This document shows positions 2 to 55,711 of a stretch of 64,000 nucleotides of DNA, one piece after another. Every line of letters starts with the position of its first letter. Positions within the stretch are counted from its first letter, which is position 1. The DNA lies in NCBI GenBank assembly GCA_031423615.1, contig JANPFV010000055.1, forward strand, positions 474 through 64,473, in the 5' to 3' direction. The stretch is from Candidatus Omnitrophota bacterium. GTDB lineage: Bacteria; Omnitrophota; Gorgyraeia; Zapsychrales; JANLHA01. Position numbers and translations under genes: made by a program. The notes under the pieces are model-generated. The model was given only the letters and a program-made list of their open reading frames with translations. It was not told the DNA's origin and did no database searches.

Positions 2-480
2 TATCAATTCCAGATAGCAAGAATCAAGTTATTTGAAAGCAAGTTTGGGCAAACTCCGCTGGGTGAAAGGGTCAATAGTATTGTTGAGTTCTCCGACCTG
101 CAAAATTATATCGCCGCCGATCAGCCTTATAACGCCGTACGCTTGGTCTTGGCTATTATGTCTCAGGAATCGTCGTTTAAATCTACGGCAATCAGCGGAA
201 GTGATAATGCCGACAAAGATATCGAGAAGAGAGCGCGGGGCTTGATGCAAGTTATGCCTGCGCACCCATATGCCAAAGGGATGGATTTATTTGATCCATG
301 GACCAATATTACGATCGGCGTCAGAATATTAGCGGATGCTTTACGGGATGCTAAAGGAAATGTTATTCAAGCCTTAAAATTTTATTTTGGCGGAACCGAT
401 GTGAGAAAACACGGTCACCGAACAGCCGCTTATCCCGGCGACGTTTTGGTAAAATATGCCCAACTCGACAAAATTCCGAG
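2..480 (+). other. SLT-type lytic transglycosylase (GH23-like) domain, running off the 5' edge of the window
   Basis: The motifs are 'LAIMSQESSF' (catalytic Glu-Ser), 'ARGLMQVMP' and 'ALKFYFGG', in the order typical of soluble lytic transglycosylase domains. Confidence 0.7.
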
Positions 481-30400: not shown

Positions 30401-33400
30401 GTCATGGCCTCAGCCAGAGACCTGGCCGCGCAAGAAGAAACCAAAGATGGCAAAGAAACTGTCACATTTACCGAAGCCTTCGCAAAAATTGAGAGGCTTT
30501 TGCGTCATTTTAAACGCGAAGGGGCGACGGGCATTTATATTTACGGTATTAATAAAACGGCCCCGCTGGGAGAAAAAGTTCATACCGTTCCGACGACAGG
30601 ACGTTATTTCTTGCCTGCGGCCCAACCTTTGGTGACGGTGAATGGCTATCAGACCAAGGTCAATGATGTGGGGACGGGAGTTCCCCTCAGAGATGACCGG
30701 GGAAATATTTTCTCGATAGTTGATATGAATATGCTCGATCCCGGCATGGGGCGTCCGGGCATGAACAATGATGATCTTTGGATGGCTCTTGGTCATTTGA
30801 CCCAGGCCGCTGAAAATTATGGTCTTAAATTGGTTACGGATTTTATATGCTGGCTTTCTCCGGACGCCATTGATGAAGGGAATCTCGATTGGACCATTTG
30901 GCAACCCTTGAGTCCAAAGCAATCTGGACAATCCGATCAAGATCTTTTATTAGCGAATGAAGACTCAGCGATTATTCGCAACAGCAACGGTGAACGCATA
31001 GCCATGGCCATGCATCTTTTTCCCAGCAACAAAGATCAGGTGATTTTAAACGCCTTTCATCCCTTTGTTGTGGCCTACTATATAAGGACTTTGCAAAAAT
31101 ACATGGAGGTAGGCATTTATATCGTCCGGGTGGATCTGGGCCATCAACTTCTTAAGAAAAACTTATTGAATTATTTTAAAAATCCTCAGCAACGAAGCCA
31201 ATATTCGCAATACCCGGAACCGTGGGAAGTTATTTTTATCGCGGCCCAGCAGATGGCTCGTAGTCAAGGAGCGAGATTCCGTTTTCTTTTTGAAACTTAT
31301 GATGAAGAGGAACAGAGGATATTGCAAGACATAGCTCAAAAGACAGGCGTTGATATTGAGTTTTATTATAGTGAAATTTATCATCAATATCGCGCCAGAA
31401 ATATTCTTGAACTTGCCTGGAAAATGGCCCATGCGTTTAATTCTCGTCACAGTTTGCGCACCTTTGTTTCGGAATTTGATGATGAGCCTTTGGCTCACAT
31501 GGGAGGACCGTTTAAAGGGTTCTTTAAATTCTTTATGGTCCACGCGGCCTTTGGATTAAAGTCTATGGCCGATACCCGTGAGTTGACCGGGCAAGAAGCA
31601 CAAATCTTAACTGTTTCCGGCGGATTAGAAACCCATCTTGTTTGTTCGCCGGCAGAATATCAAGGGCGAAATACTTTTGAAAAGCATGCCCAGATCATAA
31701 ACTCGACGGACTGGCGTGAACAATTGGCTGAAATTTTTCCAGAGGGATGGCTTCCGGCAGAAAATATTTTGCAAGACAATCACCCGGGATATCCTTCTCT
31801 GTATTTGGATTATGGAAATCGCAATCACCGAAATCGGTTTATTGCGTTGGGATGGATGGCCGGCGGAAAACTAAAAATTTATATATTTAAGGGCCGTCCG
31901 GCTGGCAAAGAGCAGAAAGTTTGGATTCAAATCCCTGAACAAATTCTTGCCGCCTCAGATTATGGGCTTCGCAAGTACCATCAAATTATTTTTGCCGCTC
32001 ATGAAGAGTATAAGTTCATGAGACTTTCTTTGGAACCGGACCGTGATTTATCAATGGCGGGTTATGAGGACGATGAGGTGGCTCGTAATTTAGCGCAGAT
32101 GTATGAGCAGAAAACAGGCGATTTCGGTTGGGCGGGACATTTGAAAGAAGATTATTATTCTTATTATCGCCGCACTCCGGGCGGACGAAAAGTTTTTGCG
32201 CGGCTCATGGAAAAATTATGGGCTGATGAGCAAAAAAGATTTGTCGACGGTTTGCAGTGGATTGATCAACAACTTTCTGCTTCATCTGAGATTCAGGAGA
32301 ATGAGAATGTCTTCGTTTCTGCCAGCTCTCCTCTTTATACACCGGTCATGAATCAAATTGTTGAGTTTGGAAATCAAGGCTGGCGTGTTGCAGAGGACAC
32401 TCAACTTGTGGTAGCAGATTTTGCGAAGGACAATGAAAAGTTGCATGTTGTTGTTTCTCGGGTCCATTTTATTTTGAAATACGACCGTCAATATAGAGAA
32501 TTACTATGCATAAATTTAGCGGGCGGTCATTTGAAAATCACCCGCAATAATAAAATAGGTCAAATTCCGATGCAATATGCGGAATTAAGAAGCGTCCAAT
32601 TTGTTGAGGAAGGAAATTTAGATGGTTTAACGGGACGGCATGTTATGGTCCTGGGATTTGATCAGGATGCTGTACACGAAAGAGAGGATTTCTTTAGAAG
32701 AAATCTGTCTCCCGCCTATTTGCGTTTAGTGGACAGTCCCTATCAACTGGCTGTTCAATTCAAATCCATAAACAGCCATTCCGCCTCATCGTCTATTATT
32801 CCGGTCAAGGTTTTATTCCCCGGCTTGGCTTTTGGACCGGTTAAATTATGGATTCCCGGCAGTGACTTTTCTCAGTTTAAAGGGACGATCGTCTTGGCCA
32901 GAGAATTGTCCGGCCATGAGGTTATTGAATTACGAAGAAACCACGTCGCCGGCTTTATCACGCTTACGGGAAATTATTCTCTCGGTGGGGGCGCGATCCC
33001 GGGGCTTCCCTGGGTCATAATATCTCAAGAAAGGTCACGTCAATTGCGGGAAGGCAAAGAAATCATTCTCGACACGCGGTTGGAAAATATTTTTTCTCCC
33101 CAAAACTATGGAATCCGGCGGGCCTCGGATGTACGGTTTAGCGAAGCGGCCCAAGCCCTGACTCAGGAAGCCCAAGGGTCTTCAGAGCAAATGGCCTATA
33201 TTCTTCATTGGCTCACCACCGAACTGGATATGATTTGGGTCATTGCCCGACGCTACCAAAAATCTGTTGTAGACAATACCGAAACCATGGGTTCTTTTTA
33301 TCGATTCATCGATGAAGAATTAAAGCCGCTGCGTCAACAAACCATTTATCAGCAACTTTATCTGGGTACGGCGGTCCGTTGGGAAGCGGCCATGGCCCAT

Positions 33401-36400
33401 GCCCGAGCCGAGCAGGATAAAGAAAAAATCAAAATAATTTTTGCGGAATATGTGGCTTGGTTAAGGAAGGTGAGAGGAAAGATTTTAGATCATACGACAC
33501 CCCAAGAGCAAAAGGCCTTGACCGGTTTCGCCCGGGCGATTGTTGATCTGGATATTGATGAAGCGTTAAACCAGGATGCCCTCTCAGATTTGGAGGCTAT
33601 CGGAACAGCATTAGGACTAGACATTCTTCATAACGAAAATATCGGCGCGGTCATTCAGGACAATATGATTCAAAGAGAAAAGCTCCGTGTTTCCAAGGAC
33701 AGCGTTTTGGCGGATTATTATTCGCATTTTATTGTGAGTTTGAAACCAGCTGAGGCTGTCGTGGATATGGAGACATTGAGCGTAGCCGACCGGCATATTG
33801 CTGGATTTAATGCTTATGGTTTGGCCTTGATGAGGGAAATTACAAAATATTTGAGGACCCATGGTCATAACGTGAGAATGGCCCGCGGTTTTGTGGTATT
33901 GCGGTACGTTTTTGAAACGCCGGAATTTGTTGAGTTTAACTCCACCATTTTAGAAATTCTTAACAACCGTCCGGCAGATGGGGCCAAGCGAGTCAGGGCC
34001 GCAATTGAAAGGGTTATCTTAAGCGAGGAATTCAAAACAAAAGTCACACAAATGTTTCAAGACATTTTGCCTGGCCAGAGAGCCATGGTCAGTGTTTCTA
34101 CGCCGATAGATCCACTCTTGTCGGACGAAGAAATATTGCCGGAACCTGTGGATGCCTCGAAGGTCGTTGACATTCTTAAAGACGTTTGGATCCGGCATTT
34201 TAATGACGAGTGGTTTGAGCGCGTATCACAGATCCAGCAATGGGCTAAGGAGAGTTCGGTACATCACAATTTTGTTATTGAACGGTATTATCCGGCGGTT
34301 ATTTTCCACGAATTCATCGGCGCCAGAAATCGGGTCTCGGTAAACATGGTCAATCCATTCACTGGCCATACAAAAGAAATGGCGGTGGCCGCGGGCCATG
34401 ATTTGATTATTGCGGAGCAAGCGACAGGCAAGAAACGTTATGAATATCGCGGTGATGGCGTCGGTATTGCTATGTATCCGTTCATTAAAGACTTGCTTCG
34501 ACAGCTGGCCAGGACCCTGTCTATTGTCAACCGGGCCCCGTTAAGGATTAAATTCATCCGCAAGCCAGATGGAGAGGTTGTCATCTGGGGAGCAGTTCCA
34601 GTTTTATTGCCCGGCGGGCTTAAGAATTTTGGTATGCACTCCACATTATCCGCCCGGTTGATCGAAGTGACTCCGGAAGGCGGGTTGAGAATAACGGTGC
34701 GTTTTGAAAGTGATTTTGATTTAAGGACAACCGACATCGCCGATATGAATAAGGCAACCAATCCCATCCAGATCATTGATTTAGAAACCAACAGTGTGAT
34801 TGAAGAGTTTGAATGGTCCATTAAAGAGAAAAATGTTTTGATGCTGAGCATTGAAAAACTATTGCGGACTTTTACCCTTAAATTAGACCGTGGTTTCGGG
34901 CGCGGGCCGGACGGCCAAACCCGAACCTATCTCAAATACCCCTTGGTGGCCGTGGAACCATTTTTATATGCTATTACCGTAGAGGGTAGAAAAATTACTG
35001 TACCAGAAATGAGAACTTTCGACGAGGTTTTAGTGTGGTATGAAAATAATTTGGCAGAAGAAAAAATGGCTGCCTCTTCAGCCCTCACTCTCGACGGAGA
35101 AAACGATCTTCTTCAGCTTGCCAGCTCATCGTCGGCTGTAAATCATACTATTCGTTCGCTCCCGGGTGGAAAACCCCTGACCGATGATGAATATACTCAA
35201 GCGAGAACGGGCCATGATCTTGAAAAACTGGCAAAGAGCAGTAAGGCAGATGAGATTTTGGCCGCAGGCAGGGACTTGGCTATCGAGACGTTATGGAAAT
35301 TTGCCGAGGACGCCCGAGCAATGGCCTTGCAGAATTTATCTTCGCAAAGAAATGTTCATATTATTGTAGGGCCTTTCCGCGGATTTTTAGCAGCCGGTTA
35401 TGAAGAAAAAGGCATAAAAACTATTTTGCTTTCAAATTATTATGAAAGCCATTACACCAAAACCGAGGTCGTAGTCAGTCTAATCTATGTCGCTGACCAT
35501 TTGGTGTTCCCCGATCCGGAAAGAGTCAAGCGCCTGACTCAAGAATTTTTGCAGGAAGAAGCACGAGTGCCGGCAACCTGGGACATGGTGAAATTGGTTT
35601 ATGACCATACAAGAAAGATGATTGAGAGTCATCCTCTCGATTGGGAAAAACGGATTTATACAAGTTATGCCCAGAATGGAGCCAGTGCTTGGCGGAGAGT
35701 TTATATGGAAGTTTTCCGCCGCTTGTCTCTTACGACCGATAGTCAGGATATTAGAAGAAAAATATCGTGGATTCTGGGACAAACAGAATTTCTGGGTTTT
35801 GATGTATGGCAAGAAGTGATGGACAATGAAAAGGCCGTGGAGACGACCTTAAGGGCTATTAACACAGCCAATCTGGTGAATAGGCAAGCCCTTGTTCATC
35901 AACTCCTCAGTGTCCTCAATGCGGATTGGGAAAATAAAGAAGAACCGGCTTATCAGCGGGCCATGGGGGTTTTAGACGGACTAGTTAAAGCCATTCCATC
36001 GGGTATGGAAAAGTTAGCGACCCCGTTAAGCCGTACGGAACCTTCTTACAGTATCGCCTTGACATGGCTGAGTAAGCAGGGTTTTCAGGATGCCCATCAC
36101 ATTGCGACAATGCTAAGGTCGGTGATGAGTAATTCTCATATTAAAGTTGTGGAATTTGAAGGTTTTCTTTTACCGGCGACATTATATGAATTTGTCGACG
36201 ATCAAGGAAGAAAAAGGACCACCATTTTAGTGTCCCGCTTTTATGTTGAAAAAGGAAATGAAGTCCAATTGGCAGGGGGGTTGATCTATGCCATAGGAAA
36301 AAGGCTGGGTTATCCGCAAGCTTTAATGATGGTGATCAAGAATGCCTTTTTTATTGATCAAGCGAAGAAAACTGTCGGTCCTCTGGCCAAGAAATTTACT

Positions 36401-39400
36401 GAAAGTTTTGTCCCGGTCGCCATGACCCTTTTTAACACGATGGTTGATATCAATCCGGTATTACAAGCCATGCTTCCGCCGTTTCTTGTCGGAACAATCG
36501 AAGAAGTTGTAGAAAGCTTGATGCCCAGTAAGATCCACCAAATGCGGGACACGATCAGTAAAATTTCAGAAGAACTCGACACCTTGATCCGTCATGAATT
36601 GGCCATGGGATTGGATCAGGGGATGACTTTCCCGGAAGTCAAGGATCGTTTAGAAATGATCGCCAGTTTCGCCTTTGGGAAAGACTTGGATGAATTGCCG
36701 GTTTTAGAATCGGTTCCTGATCGTGAGCTTCAATCCCCCGAAGGCTTGGCCTGCGTTAAAATTTATTCTCCTTATTCAACTGATCAAGAACAAGCCGCGG
36801 ATACAAAAATACATACCACCTTGATCGTAATGCCCGACTGGCGGCATTCTAATTTGCATGTTTCTCCTGATAAAGATTTGGTCGAAAAGTTCCGTAAGCA
36901 AGGACAGCGCGTTGCTGTGCTGGAATGGCAAAACCCGAAAGAAAATTATTCTTTTGGCATATTTTTACACGTGATCCATTTCTTTGTGGAAGAACTTGGA
37001 AAAGATGGGCCGGTGGATGCCATAGGATATTCGCAAGGCGGGGCATTTCTTTTATTAATGATTGCTTTGACCGAATTTAATCCTAACAACAGCGGCCGTA
37101 AAAATATTCCTGTGGCAGTAATGACCAGTGAAAATGACATCATGGTTTCTTCTCAATCAACCGCAGTCATGGTGCTGGTTCTGGAAAGAAACACAGGAAG
37201 TCGAGAAGATGAAGTTGCCATTTTTGATTCCGATGCCGTCCATGAGTTGCTCCTGACCGACGGACCCGCCTGGGACTCTTATTTGGAATGGAGAAGTTCC
37301 CATCTTTTTACCGGTACTGGCTTGGCTTCCTTATTGTTGGTGGGAACGCCTGTGGGTGTTGGTTTCTTTGAAAACATGGGAGGATCCACTCAAATCAAGC
37401 AAATGAAGCAAATGATGATGGACCGCAAAACAGGCAAATTGCCCGGTCGTTTGTTTGCCCAGTCGACTCTGCTTCTCGCCGGAGGAGATTATCTCAGGAG
37501 GATGACGAGTCAAGCTTTTGCGGAAATTTCCTGCACCGATCCGGCCGTTTTTCGCTATGCCATGGATTACCGTGGCCGTTGGCAGGAACAATTGGACCAA
37601 CTGCAGAATATAGCAAACGGAAAAATATCAGCCGCTGATTTAAAAGAGGCGACGCTGTTATTGCATTATGTCAGCCGTAACAGTCTGGATCATTCACCCG
37701 AAACTTTTAAAAAAGCAGTGGGTGAATTTAGACAAGAATTGCTGCGCTTTATTGAAGATGCTCTTTTGCGGAAATGGACCTTGAATATGCCTGATCTTGA
37801 TGCCGAAGCTCTCTTTGCATATCTTAGCTTGGTTTTTGGTGAGGAATATTTGACCAGCCTATCCGCCCAGGAAGTCTTTCAATTAAAACTCAACGCCTCC
37901 TCTGCCTCATCGGCGCTGGATCATTTTCCGGCTGTTGTATCAGGTCAATTGAGCCCGGAATTGGTAGAGCGTATTCGTATTTTAGCGGACGCGGATTTAA
38001 CGAATTTTCGTAGTAACGAGAATTTGGACAAAATCGATAGACTTTTTGGCGAATTAAGCGATATCGGCGGCGAAGACGTCTGCAATGTCGCGCTGTGGTT
38101 GATAGATGAGCAGTTAAAAAAGATTACTTATCAAGATTGGCCTTTGGAATTTGTGGTCTTGACCGGGAATCGGGTCCAATTTATGGCGACCTTGGGACAT
38201 TTTGAAGGATTTCAGGCGAGCTTGAGAATATATGAAAAAGGAATCCACGAAATGGTTGAACATAATAAAAAAAGCCCCAAACCTATAAAGAATTTCTTCC
38301 TGCCTTATAAAATTCTTATGGAAGTGTATTCCACGCTGACTGTGCTGATCGCTGCCCATGACGCCCCGGACATTCTTCTGGGTGTGGCCAACGCCGCTCT
38401 GATTTTTAAGAATTCCGTCGGGCAAGAGCTAGGATATCCTAAGGAAACCGCGATTATTTATCATCAAATGGGAATGGTTTATTGGAAACAAGAAGATTAT
38501 AAGCGTGCGCTGGAATATTTTGTAAAGGCTGAGAAACTGGATTCAACCGAGGTCATTTATGGTTTGCAGCATGCTCGCGCTTGGAAAAGGCTTGGCTACT
38601 TGGATAGGGCGAGGACACAAGCCCAGGAGACAATCGCGCGTGTTAAAGGAAAGGGCCGGGCCCATTTTATCTATGGCCTGACCGTCGTTGAAGAAGCTGA
38701 AAGGTCAGGTTCCCAATTACCGGTCGAGGAGGGAATAGAACATTTAAAGAAGGCCGCGGCCTTAGACGAAATTGCCCAAGATCTGCCTGCGAATGCCGTT
38801 GCCCAAATAGAGAAAGATTTAGCTCAAGCCAAGATCCGCCTGGATGCGGCACGTAAAGATAAAGATCTTATAGCAGAAATTGCCGTGCTGGTTAAGCTCT
38901 CAGTCGCCAGTACACCTGCTGATAATCTTTGGGCGGTTTTGGAACCTTATTTGCAAAATGAGGGAGATGTCTTTTTATTAGCGGCGATTGAAGGATTGGC
39001 GGGACATGATCGCCGGTTTAGAAAAGTTTCAACGCCTTTATTGGTGATGTTGATATTACACCCGCGCGTGGGGGTGAAATCACGCAACGCTCTTAATAAA
39101 GAATATGCCCTTCGCGCGCGGGAATGGCTTCAGGTCAGTGAAGAAATCATTGGCCTTGATCAAACGAAAATCCCTTCGGATGAGCTCACAGCGCATGTTG
39201 TCTTGGGCGCGGAACTGTTTAGCGCTATTGAAAAGAAAGCAGAAAAGACATTTGAATTAAAGCCCGCAGAATGGAGCCGGGCCCGGGTTTTATTGAAAGA
39301 ATTATCAGAATTGTCAGAAAAATTGGCAAAGCACTTGGCGGCAGAATTAGCGGCGCAATTGGCGTCCCAAGAGCAGGCAGAGAAAACCATTGATTTGGAT

Positions 39401-42400
39401 AACGGTGAATTAGACGGTTTTAAAAAACGCCTGGCAGAAATTAATAATTCGGATAAAGATACGCAAACGGATTTGTGGCTGAGGTTCCCGGTAAAATCTG
39501 ACGATGAAAATAACGATTACGATTCAATGTTGCAAGCTATAAAAGAATCGTTAAGAGATTCTGCATGGCATGCACGCGAAACTTTATTGTCGGAAATCGA
39601 AGCTTTAGAGGCTATGCCCGCCGGCGAAGATTTGGCAACGCAAAGAGAATTGCTCAATGACCTTTGGAAAAAAGCTGAAGCCATTGTGGTTTGGGAGGTT
39701 GATGGCGAGGAGTATGATTTTAGTTTATCGCTGTTTTCTAAATTGAAAGTCCTTGAGGAACGCATCGCGGTTTCGGAAAAACAATTGCGGGCCCGCTTGG
39801 CCAAAGGCTGGTTGGGCACCTTGCTTTATGACGGCATCATTGAGCGGACTTTAGAAAAACGCGTGGATGAATTGTTGCGGCATGAAAGCGATGAAGTTAA
39901 GCTGATGTATTTTTTGGCGTATGCTTTTGCAGATAGAATGCCGCAAAGTTTATTGAATATGGAACATATTGCCCGACCGATGGCGAGGGCGATTCTCTTT
40001 CAGCCGTATGGCAATAGAGTCGCTCCTCGGCATTGGAAATGGCGGGAAGTCGCCGCTCTTTTTCCGTCGCCCATTACCGGTGAAATAGCTAATGCTATTT
40101 CCAAACGTGTTGTGGAACTTTCCAAGGTTGATACGAAAACAATTGCCGCGCAAATTTCTCAAGAATTCGCTTCCCCCCCCGTTTCCAGCTGCGCGATAGA
40201 AAGTAGGGACAGACCCTACTTTTCTAATATTCAAACGACCAGCGGGCGTATTTCCGGAGAATTCAATCCGCCGTCGGTTTCCAGCTCCGCATTGGGTGCA
40301 TTATTGGCTAAAGCGCAAGCGATGGAACATGATCGATTATTGCATTTGTTGAGGCAAACCTTTCCTCAGGCGGCAGAGGAGCTTTTGGCGAGAGGACGTT
40401 TAGAAGAAAAGAATTGGACTTCTTTGGTGGCTATAAATGCACGGTTGTATTCATCTTTTGCGGACATAACGGAAGAAATTTTAAGGCTACACAGAATGGG
40501 CATTAAAAAAGTATGGTTGATTGGGATTTTTGCGGAAAGTTTGATCAGTGAAAAGTGCGGGCAGGCCAATTATGACCTTCGGTTAAATTATGGGGACCAA
40601 GAAGTTTATTTATATTTTGATCGGAATAATGACGGATCGATCATTTCCATCGTGAGGGAAACAAAAAGGGGAAGTAAAGATTTGAGCGCAGCGGCATTTG
40701 CCATCCCCGAGCATGAGCCCAGCAGCAAGTTAGGCGGCAGAGAAGAATTAAGAAAATTATTCCAGCGTACGGCTGGCATGGATATTTATGTGGATTTTGT
40801 TCCGCACAGTACATCGGTCGATTCAGCGTGGCTTCGTGATGAAAACATAATGACGGGCGAGGGATACTGGTATGTGTATAAAGATTTATCATCAGAAGAC
40901 CAACAAGCTCTTCACACTTGGGAAGAGGGACGTTATTTATCCGTCGAAAATGCAGGGAAACCCGAGACATGGATTCCTGCCCAAGAGCAATTTATTAGAA
41001 TAAGCGAGAAAATTCTTTCAGAAAATACTGGATACTTCCTCCACCGATCTACAAAATTGAATAAATGGATTCTGATTGTTTTAAGCCGAGATGCGACCAT
41101 GAAGCCGCGCGGGGAATATTTCAATGACATCCAGGTATTAATTGATTTGAGTAATTCTCAAGCGCGGCATGAATCGACCAAAGATGCAGTAGGTTTGGCC
41201 GAGCTTGGGGCCCGCGGTTTTAGGATGGATTCGGCGCAAACAGGTGTTGTCGGAAAGAAGGGCGAAGAAAGAGGGTTTATCGCAACGTGGAGTGATCATC
41301 AAATTACTAATCCTTCCTTAGGTAATAATCAGCAAGAACTCTATGAAGAGATGATTCCTGCTGTCCGTCTAGTGACACCTGATTTTGAATTCTTTGGCGA
41401 AGCCTTTTGGTTTTTTGATGTCTTAGAGCAGAGCGGATTCGACAATTTATTGCAGATATGGGTCTATATTTTAATGTCGCGGAAAAGAGACATTCCCCAG
41501 TTACGTAATTATCTCCAAAAGACGAGTTTGGATGAGCATAACCGACGTATGCACGGATCGATAAGTCATGATGATTCACCCAATTATCGATTTGAGCGGT
41601 TGGCGGATATATTGGCTGTAACGAAAAGATTTTTAACTCAAACGGTGATAACGGTGACAATTCCGGGGAGGGTTCTTTTTCATGATGAGCAATTAGGGTA
41701 TGGCTATTTGGTTGCCGCCACTAATCGCAGAATGGTGATCGATGATGTTGAGCATAAAGATGTCCGAAAGGCCTTTGAAGACATGGTGATCTTGGCCGAA
41801 GACCCGGTTTTAAGACGGGGAGAAATCCATGTTTTCCGCAATAATCATCCGCAAGTCTTGGCTTTTGCAAGATATATTCCGGGACGAGCGATAATAGTCA
41901 TAAGTTATCACGGTGCTTTTATTTCTCGAGCCAAGATTGAGAAGCTGGCTGAGCAATATGAATTAGAGTGGTCATCGGTGGCGCTATTCTTTGAACACGT
42001 TCAGTCGGGAGATGATCACCTGGTATTAAAGAGAGAATTTGATGAAATTATTCAACAAAGTCCTTTGCCAGAGGAGTTCAAGTCAGATCTGACAAGAGAA
42101 CTGCTTAAGGGACTGCAAGGGCAATCCGCTAGGGACTTGCTGGACTTGCGTGACGTTGCGCAGCAGATGGGAATTAGAAATGAGGATAATGCATTTTACG
42201 TATTGCTTGATCGATTAAACGGCGCTGTATTTTTAAGGACAGGTTCGGAATTAGTCAATCAGGGTTTATATGTTTCCTTGCTAGCTAATGAAAGTCATGT
42301 ATTTATGATTGAGCAGGTAAGGGGCGACAATAAACAGATCCGTAAAATTCTTAGAAAAGCGAAGGGGAAAGAATTATCAATTGCAAATATTTATCGTTTG

Positions 42401-45400
42401 GTTAACGACTTTGGCGTAAATGTATCATTTGTACCTACGGGCTTGCTTGCGAAAGCAGAAATTATCAGATTGCTTATTCAGCAAGGGGGAAATGTACAGG
42501 CTGTCTTGGCAATAATGGGAAACAATGAATCCGAAATCGATGTTGACGAAAGCCGTTCCTCATCCTCGATAGAAAGTAGGGACAGACCCTACTTTTCTAT
42601 TGGCAATGTCAGAATAAATATCCGAGGTCCCTATTTATCACCAGAGATCACGTCTCGTGTTACTTCCAGCGGTGACTATTCCTCTTCGGCAGTCCAAGCG
42701 ACAATTGTTGCTTTTATCTGGACTGTCCTCGTCTATGGTTTTACCAACTGGCTTTACCGACTGGCAAAGGCTCGCTTGCAAGAGGCTAGAGATATCCTTT
42801 ATGGTTTAAATGGGAAATACATGTTAAATGAACTTGAGAAACGAGGACTTTTAAACGAATTCAACGAATCATGGTTGAGCTATCAAGCATCAGAACTTCT
42901 CTTAGCAGACATTGTTTATGAGGAAACACATTTATATGATGGCTATTTGTTCATGTCAAAACAAATCGCTTTTTATTTTGTAGGATTCTTTGCGTTTTTA
43001 GCATTTCTCACCGCATTGAATAATCCAACGGGCTTGGCGTATTTTATAGCTGTCCCCAGCTGGTTTATTTCTCTTATGGCTTTGATCCATATTCCTCGTC
43101 ATGCTTATGAAAAAGGAGTGCGGTCACTGCAGAGAATTGCTGAATACAACGCCCGTCGGACCGTTTGGAATGATGAAAATACAATTGATGCAGTAAGCAA
43201 TCCTGATCAATCAGCCTCCTCGTCGCTGTATCTGATAGAAGATTCGTATTCCAAAATTATTCCAACATCTCAAAGGAATCTTAGAAATGCTGGTCATAAG
43301 ACAGCGTATTTTCTGACGCGTTTTTCTACCGTCGATAAAAGCCAGCAATGGGGTTCAGGTTCCGCTTCCAGCGCGGTGCATGAGAATTACACTGCTCTGC
43401 AAATTGAAAAAAGAAGGATTGATTGGGCTATTGCTGTGGCAGAGGCAAAAATAGCCCTTGCTCAACAGAAATTTGTGGAAGTGGATGAAAGTTTTCCGGA
43501 AGGAGAATTTCAAACATTGCGATACCATGCTTTTAAACTGAGCCTTTTGCTTGAGCACTTTAACAGGAGGATCCGCAAAAATCAAATGGGAGGGGCATTA
43601 ATGTGGGCTGGTCTTATTGCAGCCATATTTAATAGGAGAAATCCCAGTGCTCGACTTGACGCCGTGATTGTGGGGTTGATAGGGATGGCGTTAGAGGCTT
43701 TGGATTGGTTTGGGCAATGGTTGGAAGAATCCGTTCTTAAAATGGTACAACCCCAGCGGGAACTTGGTTGGGGGTACCGTCAACTTTATGCTTTGGAAAA
43801 AATGCGATTAGATGCGGTCGGCGATTTGGGTGAGTTACGCTCGGAAGCCGAAACCATTGAGAATAGAATTTTAAAGTATAAGAACAAACTCATAAATTGG
43901 CTGACCGCTCAAAATGAAATCAGTGAGATAAAGGTTTACCTTGCGTCATTTGTGGCTACTGGGGCGATATATTATCGAACACAACAGAATCAAAAAATTA
44001 TTATTGGACTGTACTTACGAGCGAGCATGGCCGCATTAAACAGTATTATTACAATGCAACGCAGTGGTGAAAATAATAATGAATTTGTTCAAACCGTTGA
44101 CACGTTCCTTAAACGGTCAATGGCGGGAATCATTGATCAGGATGACCAAATCGATGGTTTACAATTGATTTTAGTGGTTAATGAGGTCTACACTGAATTG
44201 CTCACACCTTTATCGCAATTACAGGTTCTTGCCCAAGCTGGACAGATTTCTGAGTTTGTTGTCAATGACCACGGCATCGATCTTTTTGCAACTTTGGCTC
44301 GTCATGGAATCACAACCAACGACATGACTTCTGACCGATCGTCCTCGTCTTTAGACGAAATAGTGACAGGCACTAATTTTTCTGGTTTTTCTTCGTCTAA
44401 ATCTCCCGCGGCCTCGTTGTCGGTTAAAAAATCTGTGCGATGGAACAAGGTTGTCAAAAGTAGGGACAGACCCTACTTTTCTGACAAACAAGATTCGCCA
44501 GAGGATGGAGAAAAAACGGTTTTGAATCCGGTCCGTTCTTCTTCGTCGATTGAACAAGGGAAAAAGCGTTCGGTCATTATCCCCACCTTTGTAAGTTCTT
44601 ACAAGCGGGTTTGGCGTTTATTAACATCCATCGGTGTTCCGGATTCTATACGGCCGAAAATAATTTTGATTCCCTTGGCTTTTGTTGCCTTGGTTTTCTT
44701 TGCGGTCGTAGGATTGTTCGGCAAGATTACAGATTTATGTTTTATCAAACAATTTTCAGGTGGGATAACGGATGAACAGCATCAAGGGAATACGGAAAGA
44801 AAATTTGCTCAGTCTATTTTGGCGTTTTGGCAATTTCTTACTCAACCGCTCACCGGAATCATGAAACAGGAATTAAATCTGCGCCTGCTTCCCGTCGTCG
44901 CCGCGTTATTCTTGGTCTCCGGCGGGTATTCTTTTCTCCCGATCTTTTTATTTTTGGCGGCGGGGCTTCTTTTGATAGGCTTTAGCAGAATTAAAATGGA
45001 TACAGCACGGGAGCTAACTACGCTCTTGCCGGTTATTATCGCGGTCAATAATTTGGCTGGATTGGTTCTTTTTGCCGTCCTGTCATTATTTTTGACCCAC
45101 CCTATCATTTTATCTGTGGGTCTAGGTGTGGCTTGGGTAGGTCTTACGGGATTGCATATTTTTATTTTAGTAAACCGGCAGAAATTCCTCGATACGTTAA
45201 AAAAGTTTGACCGTCAGTATGCCAATAGTAATTTACAACATCTCAGTACCGTTAAAATTGTCGAAGGTCAGGGCCCGGTCATTATTGCGGTGCATGGGAT
45301 TGGCCATAATGCAGTTATCGACTGGATGGTTTTGCGGCTTTTATTTCCCGGGCGGCCGATAGTCGTTCCTGTCAACTGGCGTTCCGATAATACGATGAAA

Positions 45401-48400
45401 GAATTTTTGAGCATGAATTTAGAAGAACAAGAGCGAAATCTTTTGATAAAACTAATCGGTGAAAAAGATAAAGCGATGCGCGCTTTGCTCTTTTTGGCTT
45501 GGATGATTGGTTACTTTGAGAGAAAAAGCGGCCAACCCGTTATGATGCTGACCTATTCTCTTGGCGGACGCAGGCTCTTGTCGCTTTTTAGTGACAAGGA
45601 TTTTGCTAGAACCGTGAAGGAAAAGAGTTATCCACAAAAATGGCTTAGGCTGGCGGAAAGTATCAAACGAGAAGTCATCACCGCAATTCCCGTCGGAAGA
45701 GTAGGATCATCACGATTGCTTCATTCTGTCCAGCTTATGGGCATGGTCATTGTAGCAAATTTGTTGGAAGCCACTTTAATCATTATTCGTATGCTCATTA
45801 TGGCCAATTGGATGATTAGGATTTTTGAAGCCGGCCGTCTTCGTCATGAGACCTACGATAGCATTGTGAAATATTCAACCAAGCAGAGTTTGCGGGTCCA
45901 GACGTTATGGTTGTTAAGGAAAATAAGTTTGAGCCCGCGAAGAATTAAAAAACTTAAACAAATGATGAATGGGATAGCGCTTCATATTGTCGTTGGAGAA
46001 ACCGATCACGTCACGCCCCTGGACACGAATCGTGTTTTTGCTGAAAGAATCGGTGCTACTTTCTCGGTCATTCCTCACGCGCATCATAAGGGTGTGATTT
46101 ATTCGGTCCAGTATTTAAAAGTTATTAGACAGCTGCTCAGTGATGAGGAGCAAGGCCCGGTTGATATTGCAGAATTGCTGAAAGGTTTGGTTATAGAAAA
46201 TGTGACCTTTGCCCAACAAGGTCAACAGTACAACACGGAATCCTCAATGTCGGATGCCATGGCTGGCGTCGTAACCACGCTTAATGAGTTTGCCGGTTCT
46301 TATGTCGAAGCCCTTTGGCCAAAGAGTTTGACGCTGAAAGTTACCGAATCTTCTTTTTTAACTCATGACCAATTCGTTTATTTGGAAAACAGCCAGACCG
46401 CGATTATTCATGCTGATTTCTTTAAACTGGCGCCTAAAATGCGAAAGGGTATTTTGTACGGTGTGTTCGTCGGACAAATCGCTCGGCAAGTCGAGAATGA
46501 TTTTCAAATGAGAGTAGCTACCGACCGGTTATATGACGCCATTGATGAGCAGGAAAACGGAAAATCAAATTGGGATTCTCACTCGGCCTTTTTCGCTTTG
46601 AAAAGCGAGTTGAAAGAATTAAAAGACCGCATATGGACAAGGGTCCACCCGGTTCTTTTGCCGCCGGTGGTAAAAGTGCAGCGGGAATATGATATGGATC
46701 AATATATCCGCCATCACCCGCCTTCTCGTCTTTCCAAAAATCATAACACCGACGTCTCTTCCTCGGCCCTAGAAAGTAGGGACAGACCCTACTTTTTGCA
46801 GAAAGTAGTGGCAGGCACTAATTTTTTTAGCTCTTCTTCTTCGATTTATTCTTGCGCTTCTTCATCGGTGGAAGAACCTATGCAGTGGAATAATTTTGTG
46901 GGTAAAGAAGCCATTTCCCACGCATTAAGCGAAGTGACCCAGCCGTTAAGTCTGGAGGACCATTTATTGAAAACCGTACCGCAAGATTATCAGCGAAGCC
47001 GACAGAGATATGCCAGGAGTCATCAGAATTCTGATCAAGGATATAATAGTGCGCTAATTAAGGAGTTTTTGGATCTTTATGAAATCATGATAGGACATCC
47101 AGGGGGATGGACGATAGAGCAGTTATGGAATTTGTTTTCCCATATTCAAAAAGCCCACCCGCGTTATATAAATTCTAGAGAATTCCTGGTTGAGATGTTT
47201 GTATTTTTTCAGAAACAAAAATATCCTTTTGAAAGACAAGGTCCCTTGTGGTCATTGACCGGGCCCGTGCAGTTACAGCTCAATATTATATTACCTCCTC
47301 GGATCGTGAATGGCGCAGGCTTGCGCAAATTTCGTCTGGACGTCAAATTAGGAATAGAGGATGCGGCAAAACGTTTAGGTACTTCCGTAGTTAGTTTGAA
47401 AAAGGCCGAGAACCAAAAAGGGCCGGTGCGATTTAATGATCTTTCAATGTGGCCGCGAATAGTTGAGCAGTATGGGTACGACAAGATGGCGGTGTGGTTA
47501 TTAATCGCTCAGTTGCCCTACGAAATTGCTATAAGACGCAGTACGCTGGGGCAAAGATTTGCGTTGGTGGGATTGGCAAACGGAAAAACGATGGAGCAAT
47601 ATGCAGAAATACTGGGTATCCATAGAACCGAGTTACATTTAATCATTGCCGGTAAGAAATTCCCTCCTCCGGAGGTTTTAGACCGCATGAACTCCTATTT
47701 TGGTATCTCTGATCAAGATCTTTTAGCCCCAACGGAAGGAATCGTTGTTGAGGGATGGCCTTTGAACAAAGCGCTTTTGGAGATGGGAAGCAAGATTAAG
47801 ATTTTCTTATACCCCAGTCTTTATCAAAGGATAGCGACCGCCCGATCCAAAGATATTTGGGTGATGTTGACAGGGCATAAAAAGGATGAGGCTTTGGCAA
47901 TGACCTTACCGCACCGACGACTAGAGCTTTGGCGTCTTGTTGTGGGTCTTACTGTCCTAGAATTGGCTGCTCAGATGCAAATAAATAACGATACATATTA
48001 TTCCCATATTAGTGGTGAGATAAATATTCCAGAAATACAAAAGATAAAATATGAAGAAATTTTTGCTCCCGCGACAAGAGCAGAACTCTTTGGTAACGAA
48101 AGTCCAACCGTAAAAAGTAGGGACAGACCCTACTTTTCTAATAATTCTGAAGTTTCTTCTTCGACGATTAGTTCCGCATTATTTATAATAAACCAGATTA
48201 GGGCGTTGATCCTTATCAAAGCAATAAGAGCTGTTTTCGCTTCTCCGCTTCTTTATGCAATTTCCCTTCTGTGGCCAATGTTACCCTTCTGGTATTTACT
48301 TGCGGGAGTGTTCCTGTTGTTAATGATTCATGGGTTTTACCGAAAGCACACCACACATTTTTTCCGTATCAGAGAATTCTTCGTCGAAGTGTTGATTGGG

Positions 48401-51400
48401 CGTTTGATAAGGAGCATAAAGGAAAGCCGTCAACAGAGAATTATAATTCATTCCGCCGGGGCCGCTGATTTTAAAGAAGCGGTTTCTATCGCAATCGCTA
48501 TTTTAGAGGATTATAAAAACCATCCGGGAACATGGAACGGCGTTGATCCGCAGAACAGTGTCGTGATTTATGCAACAGAAGGTAGTGAAAGATTATTTGC
48601 GAAAGGTTCGACTCTTGTATACAGCATTGATGAAGTTTGGTACAACGGGCTTACCGGTGTCGAGCGGTACGATTATTTTGATCGGCTTGAGCGGGATGGG
48701 AAAGAATATTATATTGCCAAGCCTGTTATTCAAGAGATGATTCGCCCTATCAGGGCAGATTTAGAAAATGTTTCCCTTCTTGAATCTGTCGATATCGTCT
48801 TGTTGCTTCATGCAATGCATTTGAATACACCGGCCAAGATAAAAAAAATCGTCGGCAATCTAAAAAGCTCATTGAATGATCAGGGTGTTTTTATTGTGCG
48901 GCATGGTCATTGGGGCATTCCTTATAGAAATATCTTAAAAGAAATCTTTCACGACGTTAAGGCCAAAACTTTATTCCACCCACGCGTGCATTATGAAAAT
49001 TCCCCCTATGACAGCGTAAATTTATTTGGTTGGGAAGGTATTTGGCTAATCCCGCTAATTCTGATATTAAAATTAGTTTTGAAAGAGGCCTCTTATCAAA
49101 AGTTAGTTGATCTGAGCCCGAAGGGCATTGAACCGTTTGAAATCTATTCTTACCGCGAAACGGATACGGAAAGGAAAAGTAGGGACAGACCCTACTTATC
49201 TAAGAATTCTGAAGTTTCTTCTTCGACGATTAATGACGGGGCAAAGGAAAAAGTAGGGTCTGTCCCTACTTATTTGGCGGTATTTTCAAATGAAAGTGAG
49301 GGAAATAGCTTTGGCGATTTAGGCGTCGTCGTTGTTCGTTCCTCCGAGCTTGTTGCTGATAGAGCGGGTAATACTTCAAGCTGGTATTATTCGCAGGTCA
49401 TTCAACATTTCATTGCGAGCGAGACGGGAGTATCACTGCCATCTCCTGTTATTAGATATAATCCAATTGAAAAATTATTGGGGTATTTAGATGAAAATGC
49501 CGCAGGTCGCAATCGTAAAGGCAACGCTGACGGTGTCATTTCAACAGAAGTTATTTTTTATAAGTGTGAGAATCAGCGTGGCGAAGCCACGTATTCATTA
49601 AAAGCAACGATTCGCCAAGAGGGACTGAAATCGCCAGATAGAAATTGGGAGATGATAAAAGCAAATGAGGTAGGATTCAATCAGCTTGGTGCACTATTTC
49701 TTATTAGAATATTGGGTCAAATGCGATTTCAAGAAACTCATTATTTAGGAGAAGGTCAGGGTTTACAGTCGTTGGGTTTTCTTATGAAAGAAACAACCGT
49801 TCGGTTAGAGTATGAACGAATGCGAAATGGCATATTTGAAACGAGAGTGTTCATCGACCTTGATCCTCTATTAGCAAAATATGCTAATAATAGAATTTCT
49901 TCCTCCGCCTCAATAACTACCCGACATCCCGATTTATCTGCCTCGTCGGCGATTTCATTGCTCCATTTTGCTGCTACGGATTCGCATCCTTTATTCGGCA
50001 TTTGGGCGAAAGGGTTAAGCGCCCGCGATGAACTGATCTTCGCGGCCCGTCAATCAGGGTTTTTAGGACACTATATTCAAGACCGCCTCGAGCATTCTTT
50101 CAGGGGCCACATCGGAAATATTTATCAGCCGCCGCAAGCTGACTATCTTGTGATGTTGAATCTTTATTGGGAAGGCGTTCGAGCGAATGTGACGCAGCAT
50201 ACCTATGGTGACGCAGTGTATCTCTGGCGTGAATCCGCAGCGGGATATGAGTTTTTGATGTTGGATTACGGGACGGGCGTTATTAATCGCGATGGCAAGC
50301 CGGTTGAGGATATCAGTCAAATTTTCAATTTAAAGTCATACCGCCAGGGCGGGTATGCCCCGGACGGTGTTGAGCGTGGCGGCGGCCAGGGTCTGGGGAC
50401 TAAACATGTCTCTGATTATACATATTTGACACGATTAATTTCAGTCAATGCCGGACGAGTCAGGATCGTTGAGAAAGCTGTACCGGGTTCTACGCTATTC
50501 TCACGGATCGCAACGAAAACGATCCAGACAAACTTTGACTTGACCGAGCTGGGGATTGACCGTAAGAAAGTGGCTGGCGTTATCGTCCAGGGATTTGTTC
50601 CTATTGAAGAAAAATTTTATAGTGGGAGATTCTCCCCGGTTACAAAAGACAGCATTTTGGCGGCCGTTCATACAGAGAGCGCCCTGCCGCGAATAAGGGG
50701 TTCCTGGCAAATTCCTTGGGCATCAGGTTTAGACCGGTTGAAAGCTGGTGATGCCATCACGATTATTTATTATCACCCAGCTGAGAAACAGCAAGTCGTG
50801 GAGATGAATGTTACATTGAAGTCATTGCCGTTTTGGGAGGGCGGCCCGATGTTCTCTATCGAAGGCGGACGCATTTTGCACGATAGTAAGCTCACGTATG
50901 TAAGAGCGCCCAAAGGCGAAAGAGAATTAAAGGGCGGCTTCGATTTTCTTAACGCCATCGCTGCTTTAGATATTAAAAGAGGGGATCAGGTCATTATTCG
51001 GTACAATGATACTATTATGATCGACGAAAAAGTGGAATTAACCGGTACTATCCGTGCGGTTCCGGCGCCGGAGAACCAGGGCGTTTTTGAAATTGAACAC
51101 CATGGCGGCGTATTGGACATCGGGCCAACTCATATTAAAGAATTTGTTAATGTCGGGAAGACACCGACAGGCATTCATTTATCCGCCGGTTCTTCTTTAA
51201 TCACCCCAAAGAAAGTAGGGACTGTCCCTACTTACTACAGGGCTAGTTCCGGACTAACAAAAGCGCAGAGGGAGCGGATTGAAGTTAATTATCAAATTAC
51301 TTTACGGAGAATTCCGATATTTGGTATCGAGTGGGCGGGGGATTTTAAGCGTGATTTTGCTGGTGAGGATCCGGAAATCACCATAGCTATTTTAAGGAGA

Positions 51401-54400
51401 TTGATCGCTCTGGGCGATCCAGCGATTAATAAAGGTGTCGCGTGGATCCTGCAAGATCCATACTATTTTGGACATAATGTTTTAGCGACGATTGATGAAA
51501 AGTACGAGGCGGGAGGGGACATCAACCGGTGGCTCGGCGAAAGACACAATATAGGTATTAATGCTGCAGTTCTTGATTTGGTGCGATATGTATTCTTGAC
51601 GGAAACTCCCGGTGCAGCCAAACACGCCCGCGCCAAGTTTATTTTGGAGGCCCAATATGGTTTTAATAAAATTGCGGGGATAGGCGGCCTGCCCGCATTA
51701 CTAAGAAATCCGCGCAAACTTTACGGCGATGTGTCCGATATCACCGCTATTATGCCAAAAGCCCGCCGAGTCTTGGACGAAGACCTAGGTCTTAATTCGA
51801 CGCAGATTGTTTCACTTCCGACCCAATATGGTTTTGAAATCTATGTCGTTTATCTTGGCGCACAACCCACGGGCAGTTTCAAAGTTTGGATTGCTTACGG
51901 GATTATTAAAGCGCTCCGGGACAACCCGAATATTGATACGATCATCCTCGCTACGACGGGAAATCAAGGTATTGCCAATTCCTATATCGGCCAGATATTA
52001 AGTCAAAAGCTTGGGCGCCCAATCAAGGTCATCATTTATACCCCCTACGACACACCGTCGGTCAAGATTGACGCCATGGAATCTTATGATGCAGATGTTC
52101 GCAGGGATCCTGACGTTAAAAATTATGACCAGTCGGTCACCGTTGCGAAAAGAGCATATGAAGAAATAAAAGACCATGCTTATTTTGTCGATCATGCGGG
52201 GGCGGAGGCGCTGATCTCCTATGCCGCTCTCGGGGACACGATCCTTGATACCTTTGAATCAATGACCGGCAATTTGCAGGATACCGCGATAATCGGTCAA
52301 ATAGGCGCGGGAGGGCTTTTAAGCGGGGCTGCGGCGGCAGCGAAGTTCCGTAGTCTCACGACACTCGTCTTCGGCACACAAAGCCTTTTGACCCGTCACG
52401 CTTATGAATCGTTTGTGTGGGGAGAGATCAGAAAATATGTTTATGATAATCAAGCCCTGATTCGCTCAACCGGCATTGACACCAAAGAATTAGAAAAGCT
52501 CGCTTTTGAAGTTTTACGGAAAACATTAGACGGCATGTTCCTCGTTGATGAGAACAACATCGATGCGGCGATCAGGCTGTACCATCGCAGCGGAATCATC
52601 GCCGAACCTGCCGCCGTCCTCCCGTATTTGGCATTTGTAGTATCCCGTCGAATTTTGCAGAGACTCGGTGTTAAGAAAGTGCTTTTGTTGTCGAGCGGGA
52701 GCAATATTTCACCCGCAGATCATGCGCGTGTCATTGCTTCTGAAATAAATAAAATAAATAGGGACGGCGCCTATTTATCCCATGTATCCGCGGCTGTTTC
52801 CTCCTCATCGGCGGTTGAACGCAATGACGTTCTGACGAAGTTGACGGCGCGAGCAGTGGAGGTTGCCAGACAATCTACGGTTTCCAGGTTATCAGGACTG
52901 CCAAAAGTCGGGGCATTGGTTGTTGATTGTGATGGGAATATCGTCGGCGAAGGGTATAACAAAGAGTTTGGCGGCGATTTGCATGCAGAGCATGCGGCGA
53001 TACTCAGCGTTGTTCACAATTATTTACGAACACGACATGATGATTCAGACAGAAAAATGGTGTCCATATTAGCGATTTCAATTGTGATCTGGCCATACTT
53101 AAATCGGCGCGAACGTGGATATGAAAGAAACTTTGAAGATTTAACGCGTCGTTTCCTCCAGTTAGCAGATCAGACGGAGTTGAGTTTTAATGATCTCTCC
53201 TTAATCGTTACAATGGCTCCTTGTACTCGATGCTCGGCTCTGATCGGTAAACTTGGGTTCAGGTCAGTCTTCTATCCGGAGAATTCTTATCCTTCGCAAC
53301 GGGGTCTTAGTATTCTTGAAAAAAGTGGTGTAACCACTTTTGGTCTTCCTGTTGAAATTGATCAGGATCTTCAGGGTTGGGCGTTTAGATTATTTAATCG
53401 CTTTCCGTGGATATACAAAACGAGCCATAAGTTACTTCGTCAGTTGCGGGGTAATAAAGAAGGAAATGAAGATCGTAGGAAAAGTAGGGACAGACCCTAC
53501 TTTCCTGACAATCCCGATGTTTCGTCGTCGGCCCTTGTTCTTCCTGCAACCTTCCTAGCAGAAGGGTTAAAAGTAGGGTCTGTCCCTACTTTTTCGTTTG
53601 TGGCGGAAGTGATCGGTTCTTTGGGAGCTATCCCGCCAGGGGCAACAGTTCAATATAATGGAATGAATAATAGCGGAAATCAGTTTGGATTATTGCCGAT
53701 AAAACTTAGTGCGCAAGGACAGGCGTTCTTGGGGACTTTTGCGAAGAATTCCGGGATCCCCGAACAGGCTAAACTTTTAATTTTTAAAGCGGGAGACGAT
53801 AATTATAATGGGCGCTTTAAAGACATGGGGCCATTAGCTGTTGGATTGATCTTTGATGTTGCGGCACAAAGTCAAAAAGGTTATTTTGACTTTTCATTCT
53901 TATGGCAGATATCAGGAACACATCCAGAATTTTATTTTAAAAACGCCAAAGAAACTTTAAAGAGCAATAGACTTGATAATTGGATTGCATTTCAAATTGA
54001 CAAAAAACCAGCAGTCATTCGTCCATTTGATGGCCAACTGAAAAACAGTGGCTATTTCTTAGAGTTGCTAATTATTTCACCGCTCAGGGATCAAGCTCAT
54101 TCTTATTCTGGTTTTTATAATTTGGAAGTGGAGATGGAAAGCCTGGAAGTTTTTCCTTTTAATGCTCCTGCCAGTGTTGATATGCAAACAGTTATATACA
54201 ACAACAGAAGATTATTGAAGTCCAAGCGCGTTCATGTCATTGGCTCCGGCTTGGGAATCGATGTTGTGATGGCTTTAAAGCATGGGGCCCGGGAAGTCAG
54301 TTATTTTGACATTAATCCGGTTCATCAGCTTATAACAGGCTGGAATGCTTTGTATGCAGAACACAATGGCGAGTTTTCTTTAGCAGGGCGTTCTCGTTCT

Positions 54401-55711: not shown

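Follow-up and report, generated by a model that had tools for sequence, protein, structure and literature searches.

The closest described counterparts of the element reported here are the GTAG-tagged repetitive extragenic palindromes (REPs), which are 20-40 bp long, form inverted dimers 20-100 bp apart and fall into sub-families that differ by complementary changes in the stem (Di Nocera et al. 2013, PMC3733652). They lie mostly near gene ends and in untranslated regions (UTRs), and some sit wholly within open reading frames (ORFs), in frame. These intragenic copies are most numerous in Opitutus terrae, a bacterium of the Planctomycetes-Verrucomicrobia-Chlamydiae (PVC) group, in which intragenic dimers add 20-30 residues and some genes have been hit twice (PMC3733652). 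Rickettsia palindromic elements (RPEs) are selfish palindromic repeats that insert in frame into protein-coding genes unrelated to one another, to which they add a conserved peptide, and they are retained in places that the protein fold can accommodate (PMC10969869). Here we describe a 25-bp palindrome that recurs within one giant gene on a stretch of 64,000 nt (the window) from contig JANPFV010000055.1 of a Candidatus Omnitrophota bacterium (GCA_031423615.1). 'Multi-enzyme' giant proteins have been reported for Omnitrophota (bioRxiv 10.1101/2023.11.21.568195; 10.64898/2026.06.07.730766), and the host gene fits this description; neither paper mentions palindromes, hairpins, linkers or the Ser-rich junction motif described below. 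We consider it likely that the palindromes are a REP/RPE-like short palindromic element, belonging to a new Omnitrophota family and inserted in frame.

We searched the window for the pattern AAAAGTAGGG-N5-CCCTACTTTT, allowing up to 3 mismatches, with 100 dinucleotide shuffles as the null. Eleven matches with 0-3 mismatches were found and named c1 to c11 in positional order (Table 1). None appeared in the shuffles, which rules out a chance origin. All eleven are confined to the last 15.5 kb of one ORF, and the rest of the window (the first 40 kb and the flanks) is free of copies and even of isolated 7-nt half-sites. This distribution is the one reported in the first-pass annotation of the window, made from the sequence alone. 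Eight of its coordinates were correct and three were off by one (49248, 51212 and 54801 for 49249, 51211 and 54800), and the two forward/reverse pairs that it had pointed out are the doublets c6/c7 and c9/c10. A separate inverted pair at 24679/24792 with AAGTAGG-like arms was inspected and judged unrelated to the palindrome.

Eight copies are in the forward orientation, with the loop ACAGA, and three in the reverse, with the loop TCTGT (ACTGT in c8). With all copies turned to one orientation, 10 of 11 agree over the whole of the inner 21 nt and c8 deviates at one loop base, and the same 21 nt recur in both orientations and in the canonical copies of other genomes. As first noted, c8 is a perfect 21-bp palindrome, but its proposed origin as a forward/reverse hybrid need not be invoked, since a single substitution (TCTGT to ACTGT) from a reverse copy suffices. 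The palindrome arms are frequently longer, at 12-16 bp, and an alignment of all copies showed that the flanks of most are mutually unrelated. A mismatch scan and a covariance model revealed three degenerate copies, listed separately and bringing the total to 14, with 6-7 mismatches and 8-9 of the 10 stem pairs retained; about 0.25 such matches would be expected per window.

Translation confirmed the earlier statement on reading frames. Frame 0 is used by all eight forward copies, which encode (E/K/Q)SRDRPY(F/L), the three in reverse orientation give KVG(S/T)VPT(Y/F), and two of the degenerate forward copies (44356 and 46801) are in the other open frame. The element is stop-free in two of the three phases in either orientation. 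Phase offsets 0 and 1 are both in use, the third phase, which contains a TAG (AAG TAG), is used by no copy, and the giant ORF remains open across all 14. Downstream of c5, c6, c9 and c11, a 35-nt tail codes for [S/P]-x-N-[S/P]-[E/D]-x-SSS-[T/A]. This tail is 94% identical between c5 and c6 and 66-69% identical in the other pairs, with Ser codons that vary synonymously, while the adjacent core is 100% identical. Because the core is invariant while the adjoining linker codons vary synonymously, the element is conserved at the nucleotide and not at the peptide level.

The stem is also preserved as a stem. Across canonical and variant copies, 4 of the 10 stem pairs have changed on both sides, and the covariation score was higher than in 500 of 500 shuffles. 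Single copies have predicted folding energies of -12.6 to -19 kcal/mol (z -3 to -5), and the doublets are predicted to form long duplexes, of 21 bp for c6/c7 (-45 kcal/mol) and 26 bp for c9/c10 (-61 kcal/mol). As a physical prediction, the mRNA hairpin suggested in the first-pass annotation thus stands. No Rfam 15 covariance model matched the region 39000-56500 at E<=1.

The element also occurs outside giant genes. The exact 21-mer was present on three genome contigs, from two metagenome-assembled genomes (MAGs), and on four metagenome contigs; it had no match in viral contigs, which argues against a viral origin. Both MAGs are titled 'uncultured Planctomycetales bacterium' (GCA_964620805.1, with loci L002, L003 and L015, and binchicken_co117_143, with locus L001) and they are mutually distant, their DnaE sequences being 59% identical. 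We examined the taxonomic affinity of RecO, encoded beside the element, in GCA_964620805.1, and its named best hits were only Candidatus Omnitrophota (58-62% identity). Judged by this protein, the Planctomycetales label of that MAG looks wrong or outdated, and the same result rules out, for that MAG, a cross-phylum transfer to Planctomycetes.

Among the distinct copies in other Omnitrophota loci (L006, discussed below, excluded), six of seven are extragenic and one is inside ybeY, at a density of about 3 per 19 kb. The 5' UTR of phoH carries an inverted doublet of the loop variant GGGACAGCGCC, which ends 5 nt before the start codon. Another copy stands singly just 5' of a lipoprotein gene, and a doublet lies 3' of a pilin-like gene; the doublet spacers are 67 nt in L001 and 24 nt in L014. 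Two of these UTR locations, L003 3921-3960 (lipoprotein gene) and L014 5483-5570 (phoH), are 5-10 nt from start codons, at the place where a ribosome-binding site would lie, and both are stop-free and in frame with the downstream gene. Such copies may alter translation initiation, or they may be translated from an upstream start. On a metagenome contig with 68% G+C (L006, 2231-2261), we observed a near-perfect copy, GAAAGTAGGGTCTGTCCCTACTTTC, just past the stop of an EAL-GGDEF gene and followed by a partial repeat, CCCTACTT. This may be a member of the family in a distant organism, or a hairpin that arose by chance.

The ybeY copy provides a filled and an empty site. A canonical copy at L014 8054-8084 is in frame inside the gene (...DVLSFDYQ-KSRDRPYFS-SYRRGLRHPSISGEIIIS..., in short FDYQ-KSRDRPYFS-SYRRG), and its frame matches that in the giant gene. 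A relative whose RecO is 75% identical has a ybeY that reads ...DVLAFDY-RVSSSRPQNSEMS-GEIIIS... and is without the element, and no copy was found in two loci of this relative with a total of 34 kb. The loop comprises 22 residues with the element and 13 without it, a difference of exactly 9 residues, or 27 nt. On the evidence of these sequences, related genomes differ in whether they have the element, which occurs in translated as well as untranslated DNA and adds nine codons when it is translated. The first-pass annotation had considered a module-specific role and had named intergenic copies as the mark of a generic REP-like element. Because the element also lies in intergenic DNA of other Omnitrophota, the module-specific reading fails.

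Giant genes of relatives point in the same direction. In the closest relatives that we found (MutS 80-83% identical), the same mutS-mutL neighbourhood is followed by a giant gene. Its product has 29,688 aa in L008 and over 11,205 aa in L010; in L013 it has 2,687 aa, and a further ORF lies just upstream. In the last ~8 kb of these three genes, we detected no copy within 5-6 mismatches, no significant covariance-model hit, no perfect hairpin of at least 9 bp and no 14-mers in interspersed repetition, the sole repeat being a short local tandem in L008. The element is not general to these giant genes, as it is absent from the ends of the orthologues.

The only part conserved in all relatives (L008, L010, L013 and L012) is formed by the last ~250 aa (window 54842-55708). 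This C-terminal tail, which is hydrophobic at its C-terminus, starts with SSSAIRDEE and includes the blocks ISY.K(I/M).Y, (I/V)R.(W/Y)K and P...(L/M)G. Three of the four genomes have SSSAI(R/I)(D/E)(D/E) at this start, and L008 has a degenerate ASSTVIGD. The sequence before the tail differs among the four, with the nine palindrome codons present in the window only, and the upstream module content is almost wholly different even at 80% MutS identity. In L008, a module resembling M3 of the window is followed by the tail ~40 aa later, and the c4-c11 block has no counterpart there. These comparisons suggest that the giant gene gains and loses length upstream of a C-terminal anchor that stays fixed. 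Since the tail and the neighbouring mutL are conserved in the relatives, the tail is ancestral, with the extra modules upstream of it, and a 3' extension by read-through into downstream genes is ruled out. In L013 (13628-13643), the gene starts 15 nt past the stop of a same-strand ORF, and in an alignment its N-terminal residues fall at position 388 of the L010 fragment, which reads on at this point. The giant gene may be split by a stop in L013, either in reality or through an assembly error.

The placement of the copies follows a second sequence feature. A recurrent motif, x-S-S-S-[A/S/T]-[I/L/V], serves as a marker of module boundaries, both in the giant protein and in the orthologues (L010 14428-22574, L013 5565-13628 and L008 14586-22559, all on the minus strand). 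In the window protein, examples are found at aa 13379, 14138, 14179, 15538, 16004, 16358, 17552, 17793 and 18233. Ten of the 11 copies lie within 20 residues of an SSS motif, at distances of 0-18 codons with a median gap of 5, a proximity that none of 20,000 permutations reached. Three copies (c1, c2 and c4) come directly after the motif. Four others (c5, c6, c9 and c11) start their approach to it from a shared position, with the motif six codons downstream, five residues past the nine-residue hairpin peptide. A simple hydropathy scan also places hydrophobic, transmembrane-like segments at 42680-43100, 44660-45800, 48180-48330 and 49010-49070, clustered just past several junctions. They come after c2, c3 and c5 and before c6, and the basic KSRDR peptide thus often shortly precedes a predicted membrane helix.

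We propose that a short, REP-like and probably non-autonomous mobile DNA element circulates in Omnitrophota genomes. Its unit would be about 27 nt. Because a unit of this size equals nine codons and is stop-free in two of three phases either way, insertion into coding DNA would keep the frame and add KSRDRPYF(S/P), or KVGSVPT(Y/F) if reversed. The element would in this respect be pre-adapted to coding DNA, and purifying selection would leave copies only where nine extra hydrophilic residues are harmless, namely at the flexible Ser-rich x-SSS-[AST]-[ILV] junctions here and in a surface loop of YbeY in another genome. The hairpin and its exact core (the GTAG...CTAC stem) would presumably be maintained by a mobilising enzyme and not by the protein, and the most plausible candidate is a single-strand transposase of the RAYT/IS200 type. 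We infer this mobility, the exact unit length and the enzyme, as well as a status of the copies as neutral or slightly deleterious passengers instead of functional gene parts, from a set of direct observations: the element being identical within giant genes and elsewhere, the filled and empty ybeY, the absence from orthologues, a conservation of nucleotides and not of the peptide, the compensatory stem changes, the avoidance of the TAG phase and the tight association with the junction motif. Copies outside giant genes, element-free orthologues, and doublets and compensatory sub-families favour one of the readings first put forward, that of a REP/MITE-like element (MITE standing for miniature inverted-repeat transposable element) tolerated only in linkers.

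Several observations weigh against this proposal. The 27-nt unit comes from one filled/empty comparison, in which the ybeY loops fit in length but cannot be aligned, and no target-site duplication was identified. No transposase, of the Y1_Tnp family or any other, was seen among the called genes of L008-L018 or in the window. For the source organism, the analysis covered the 64-kb window, where all copies lie inside the giant ORF. In classical GTAG REPs the tag is unpaired, whereas the GTAG of this element pairs with CTAC. The distribution is extreme, with 14 copies in 15.5 kb versus 0 in the other 48.5 kb, though the first 13,000 residues contain 8 of the 23 SSS motifs; such clustering is more than tolerance alone can explain. 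One of the two open phases is common to the eight canonical forward copies and the copy in ybeY, an outcome with a chance of ~0.4% (1 in 256) under equal use with the phase unspecified. Finally, four copies are placed identically with respect to a homologous junction tail, which needs either target specificity or co-duplication followed by divergence of the tail only. Local spread, a target preference for junction-coding DNA, or duplication of junctions at module insertion could each explain the density, the phase and the position.

Part of this pattern would also be expected if the identical 25-31-bp palindromes were in-frame recombination sites, as the first-pass annotation had suggested. 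REP-flanked DNA would then be captured, duplicated or deleted by homologous or site-specific recombination, and the repeats would mark recently acquired modules. Both the clustering and the shared phase would be explained: the copies cluster where the content differs most from relatives, the palindrome-bounded modules from c4 to c11 have no counterpart at the matching place in L008, and all forward copies are in phase, so that a deletion between any two stays in frame. The 5' UTR copies in L003 and L014 are likewise open and in frame with the downstream gene. Identity over 25-31 bp is about the minimum length for RecA-type recombination.

However, module turnover in the relatives proceeds without the palindrome. 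Between L013 and L010, we found three clean module indels (354, 236 and ~260 aa), each with the SSS motif at both ends in the module-bearing genome and a single hybrid motif in the module-less one, and no palindrome was involved. Because these indels occur at the SSS motif without it, the palindrome is, as far as the compared sequences tell, not needed for module turnover in this gene family. The motif itself looks like a recombination or acceptance point for the gain and loss of modules, or like a required module-start feature, perhaps a processing site. The element is moreover found in the ybeY loop and in UTRs, where there is no module, no recombinase was seen, and M3 and the tail are flanked by copies yet common to relatives. 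Three of the copies are inverted, and 24 of 24 inversions between opposite copies create 1-211 stop codons, which also rules out a shufflon-like inversion that yields alternative ORFs. The modules are not paralogues of one another; a self-BLAST of the giant protein revealed no internal paralogues, and this result and the unrelated flanks of most copies rule out a tandem or paralogous module duplication that carried the repeat. We regard recombination cassettes as unlikely and, for the reasons above, not needed. Equally doubtful is the wider proposal in which phase-locked repeats at Ser-rich junctions act as portable recombination sites; if it were true, a REP-driven 'exon-shuffling' would help to build the multi-enzyme proteins of 10,000-100,000 aa in Omnitrophota.

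We also see little likelihood that the repeats, as predicted hairpins, were exapted as a nucleic-acid signal on the 55-kb transcript or its template, where they could act as a 3'-exonuclease barrier, an RNase III site, a conditional intragenic terminator or a ribosome pause. The predicted hairpins are stable, the 21-26-bp duplexes of the doublets are possible RNase III sites, stem pairing is kept by compensatory changes even in decayed copies, and pausing would make sense at module boundaries. REPs elsewhere have been proposed to stabilise mRNA or to terminate transcription (PMC3733652). Yet relatives with equal or longer syntenic genes, such as L008, do without such hairpins in their last ~8 kb, as do the first 40 kb of the window's own gene, and conserved pairing is equally expected for a mobile element with a hairpin-recognising enzyme. 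The T run after the stem is 3-5 nt long, and the copies fall short of rho-independent terminators as defined by a G+C-rich stem with at least 5 T. In a consensus terminator scan of the eleven copies, c10 was the only one flagged on the sense strand; c6 and c7 were flagged on the antisense strand only.

A role as operator sites is very improbable. Here the 10-5-10 palindrome would be bound by a dimeric HTH protein, possibly through the XRE-type HTH of the giant protein itself. The geometry is operator-like, one such domain is encoded between c4 and c5 (Pfam HTH_31/HTH_3, E 3e-10), and in other genomes two of the copies are placed closely upstream of start codons. The earlier proposal counted three HTH domains, but only one is detectable, and it is embedded in a membrane-spanning giant protein. 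Eleven sites within a coding region in both orientations, plus one in the ybeY loop, reveal no regulatory logic, element-bearing loci elsewhere have no HTH neighbour, and the doublets and compensatory stem changes point to a hairpin and not to a duplex binding site. Least credible of all is a functional linker peptide, KSRDRPYF, serving as a protease or sorting site with the DNA palindrome incidental: the canonical forward copies and the ybeY copy do encode the same peptide in the same frame, but this reading is effectively refuted by the reverse copies, which encode the unrelated KVGSVPTY, and by identical DNA in untranslated regions, while degenerate forward copies use another frame (KVVAGTNF), the 21 nt show no synonymous variation where neighbouring conserved residues do, and a profile of the hairpin peptide and junction searched against 1.84 billion representative proteins gave no true match, returning only one unrelated repetitive protein.

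The host gene is flanked by mutL and mutS, and all named relatives of this MutS are Candidatus Omnitrophota. The giant protein has an SLT domain at its N-terminus, a glucan-synthase-like region and RelA/SpoT-like, TPR, HTH, CheR, PALP and deaminase domains. In the copy-bearing region, Pfam recognised one XRE-type HTH, a CheR-type methyltransferase, and PALP with cytidine deaminase, with TPR upstream of c1. These assignments agree with the HTH (one, not three), methyltransferase, and PLP (pyridoxal phosphate; PALP) plus deaminase modules named in the first-pass annotation; its GH13, 'hydrolase' and second 'methyltransferase-like' blocks found no support in Pfam or PDB sequence searches. PDB sequence searches of M0, M2, M6 and M8, four of the modules without a Pfam enzymatic-domain match, returned nothing apart from TPR, and a search of 5.8 billion proteins with the region 48113-51235 gave no relative at E<=1e-8. 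In its 5' part, at 8417-9399 and 26750-27540, the gene contains ordinary tandem repeats at the protein level that are unrelated to the palindrome: four 234-nt units with 70-86% identity, along with a set of 42-69-nt and 420-nt repeats.

Table 1. The giant ORF and the palindrome copies within it, in window coordinates.
Feature	Position	Strand	Description
Giant ORF hosting all copies	143..55711	+	18,522 aa
c1	40199..40223	+	Reads ESRDRPYF, directly after junction peptide SSCAI
c2	42572..42596	+	Reads ESRDRPYF, directly after SSSSI; stem reaches 16 bp
Degenerate copy	44356..44380	+	7 mismatches, 8/10 pairs; sub-type in which stem pair 9:17 is T:A; reads EIVTGTNF in the other open frame; SSS 3 codons downstream
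c3	44456..44480	+	Reads KSRDRPYF
c4	46772..46796	+	Reads ESRDRPYF, directly after SSSAL
Degenerate copy	46801..46825	+	6 mismatches, 9/10 pairs; compensatory G:C to T:A at 9:17; other open frame, KVVAGTNF; directly before SSSSS
c5 and 35-nt junction tail	48113..48172 (c5 48113-48137)	+	Tail codes SNNSEVSSSTIS; 60-nt unit 93% identical to c6 counterpart
Inverted doublet c6/c7	49175..49273 (c6 49175-49199; c7 49249-49273)	c6 +; c7 -	99 nt overall; 49-nt spacer codes SSS junction motif
c8	51211..51235	-	Reverse type, loop ACTGT, reads KVGTVPTY
Degenerate copy	52754..52778	+	7 mismatches, 9/10 pairs; compensatory G:C to A:T at 5:21; loop like L014 variant; in linker between PALP and deaminase domains, 7 codons before SSSS
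Weak, uncertain candidate relic hairpin	53318..53344		AAAAGTGGT-GTA-ACCACTTTT; 13 bits, E 0.56
Inverted doublet c9/c10	53480..53593 (c9 53480-53504; c10 53569-53593)	c9 +; c10 -	114 nt overall; 64-nt spacer codes PDNPDVSSSAL
c11	54800..54824	+	Reads QSRDRPYF; 6 codons before SSSAIRDEE, start of conserved C-terminal tail module

The regular punctuation of this giant gene is probably best explained by selection acting on a selfish repeat, and not by design. A nine-codon, stop-free element could spread through coding DNA and be retained only where the protein is flexible. Copies retained in this way would therefore be natural markers of tolerated linker positions and would help to dissect the largely unannotatable giant proteins of Omnitrophota. 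The S-S-S-[AST]-[ILV] motif that bounds the gain and loss of modules may matter more, as a handle on how giant genes are assembled.

Among described systems, the GTAG REPs are the nearest. As in that family, the unit is a short, near-identical palindrome of 20-40 bp with a GTAG-containing end, present in multiple copies, as singletons and as inverted dimers, with sub-families that differ by complementary stem changes and with in-frame intragenic copies. The Omnitrophota family is not listed in the published survey, whose supplements contain no GTAGGG string (PMC3733652). The GTAG here (AAAA-GTAG-GG...) is paired inside the stem and is not an unpaired end tag, the element is symmetric apart from its 5-nt loop, and the arms are flanked by A and T runs. 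All copies in the giant gene are at inter-module junctions, and 11-14 of them share one ORF, compared with the one or two per gene reported (PMC3733652). The doublets resemble REPINs, in which inverted REPs fold into one long hairpin, and the conserved core is as expected for a dedicated enzyme (PMC3337134, PMC2817692, PMC8266576). Unlike in REPIN/RAYT systems, no RAYT (Y1/HUH transposase) gene was seen in the sequence examined, singletons outnumber doublets, and the core is identical even across the two lineages with distant DnaE sequences. The likeness to RPEs lies in the in-frame insertion with a conserved peptide, in the giant ORF and in ybeY. RPEs are ~100-150 bp long and restricted to Rickettsia, whereas the element described here measures 25-31 nt (a ~27-nt unit), belongs to Omnitrophota and has many copies in one ORF.

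With regard to MITEs, the whole element is here a single inverted repeat; TA...TA flanks accompany only c1, c2 and c5, and the ybeY loops offer no alignment. Integron attC sites are imperfect palindromes that punctuate an array of unrelated functional units. The locus differs from such arrays in being a single continuous ORF, with no integrase and no attC R/L box structure, and the element also occurs singly in UTRs and in ybeY. If our reading is correct, in-frame insertions of the REP/RPE type extend to Omnitrophota, and what is unusual about them is that one ORF has so many copies and that these are so strictly associated with module junctions.

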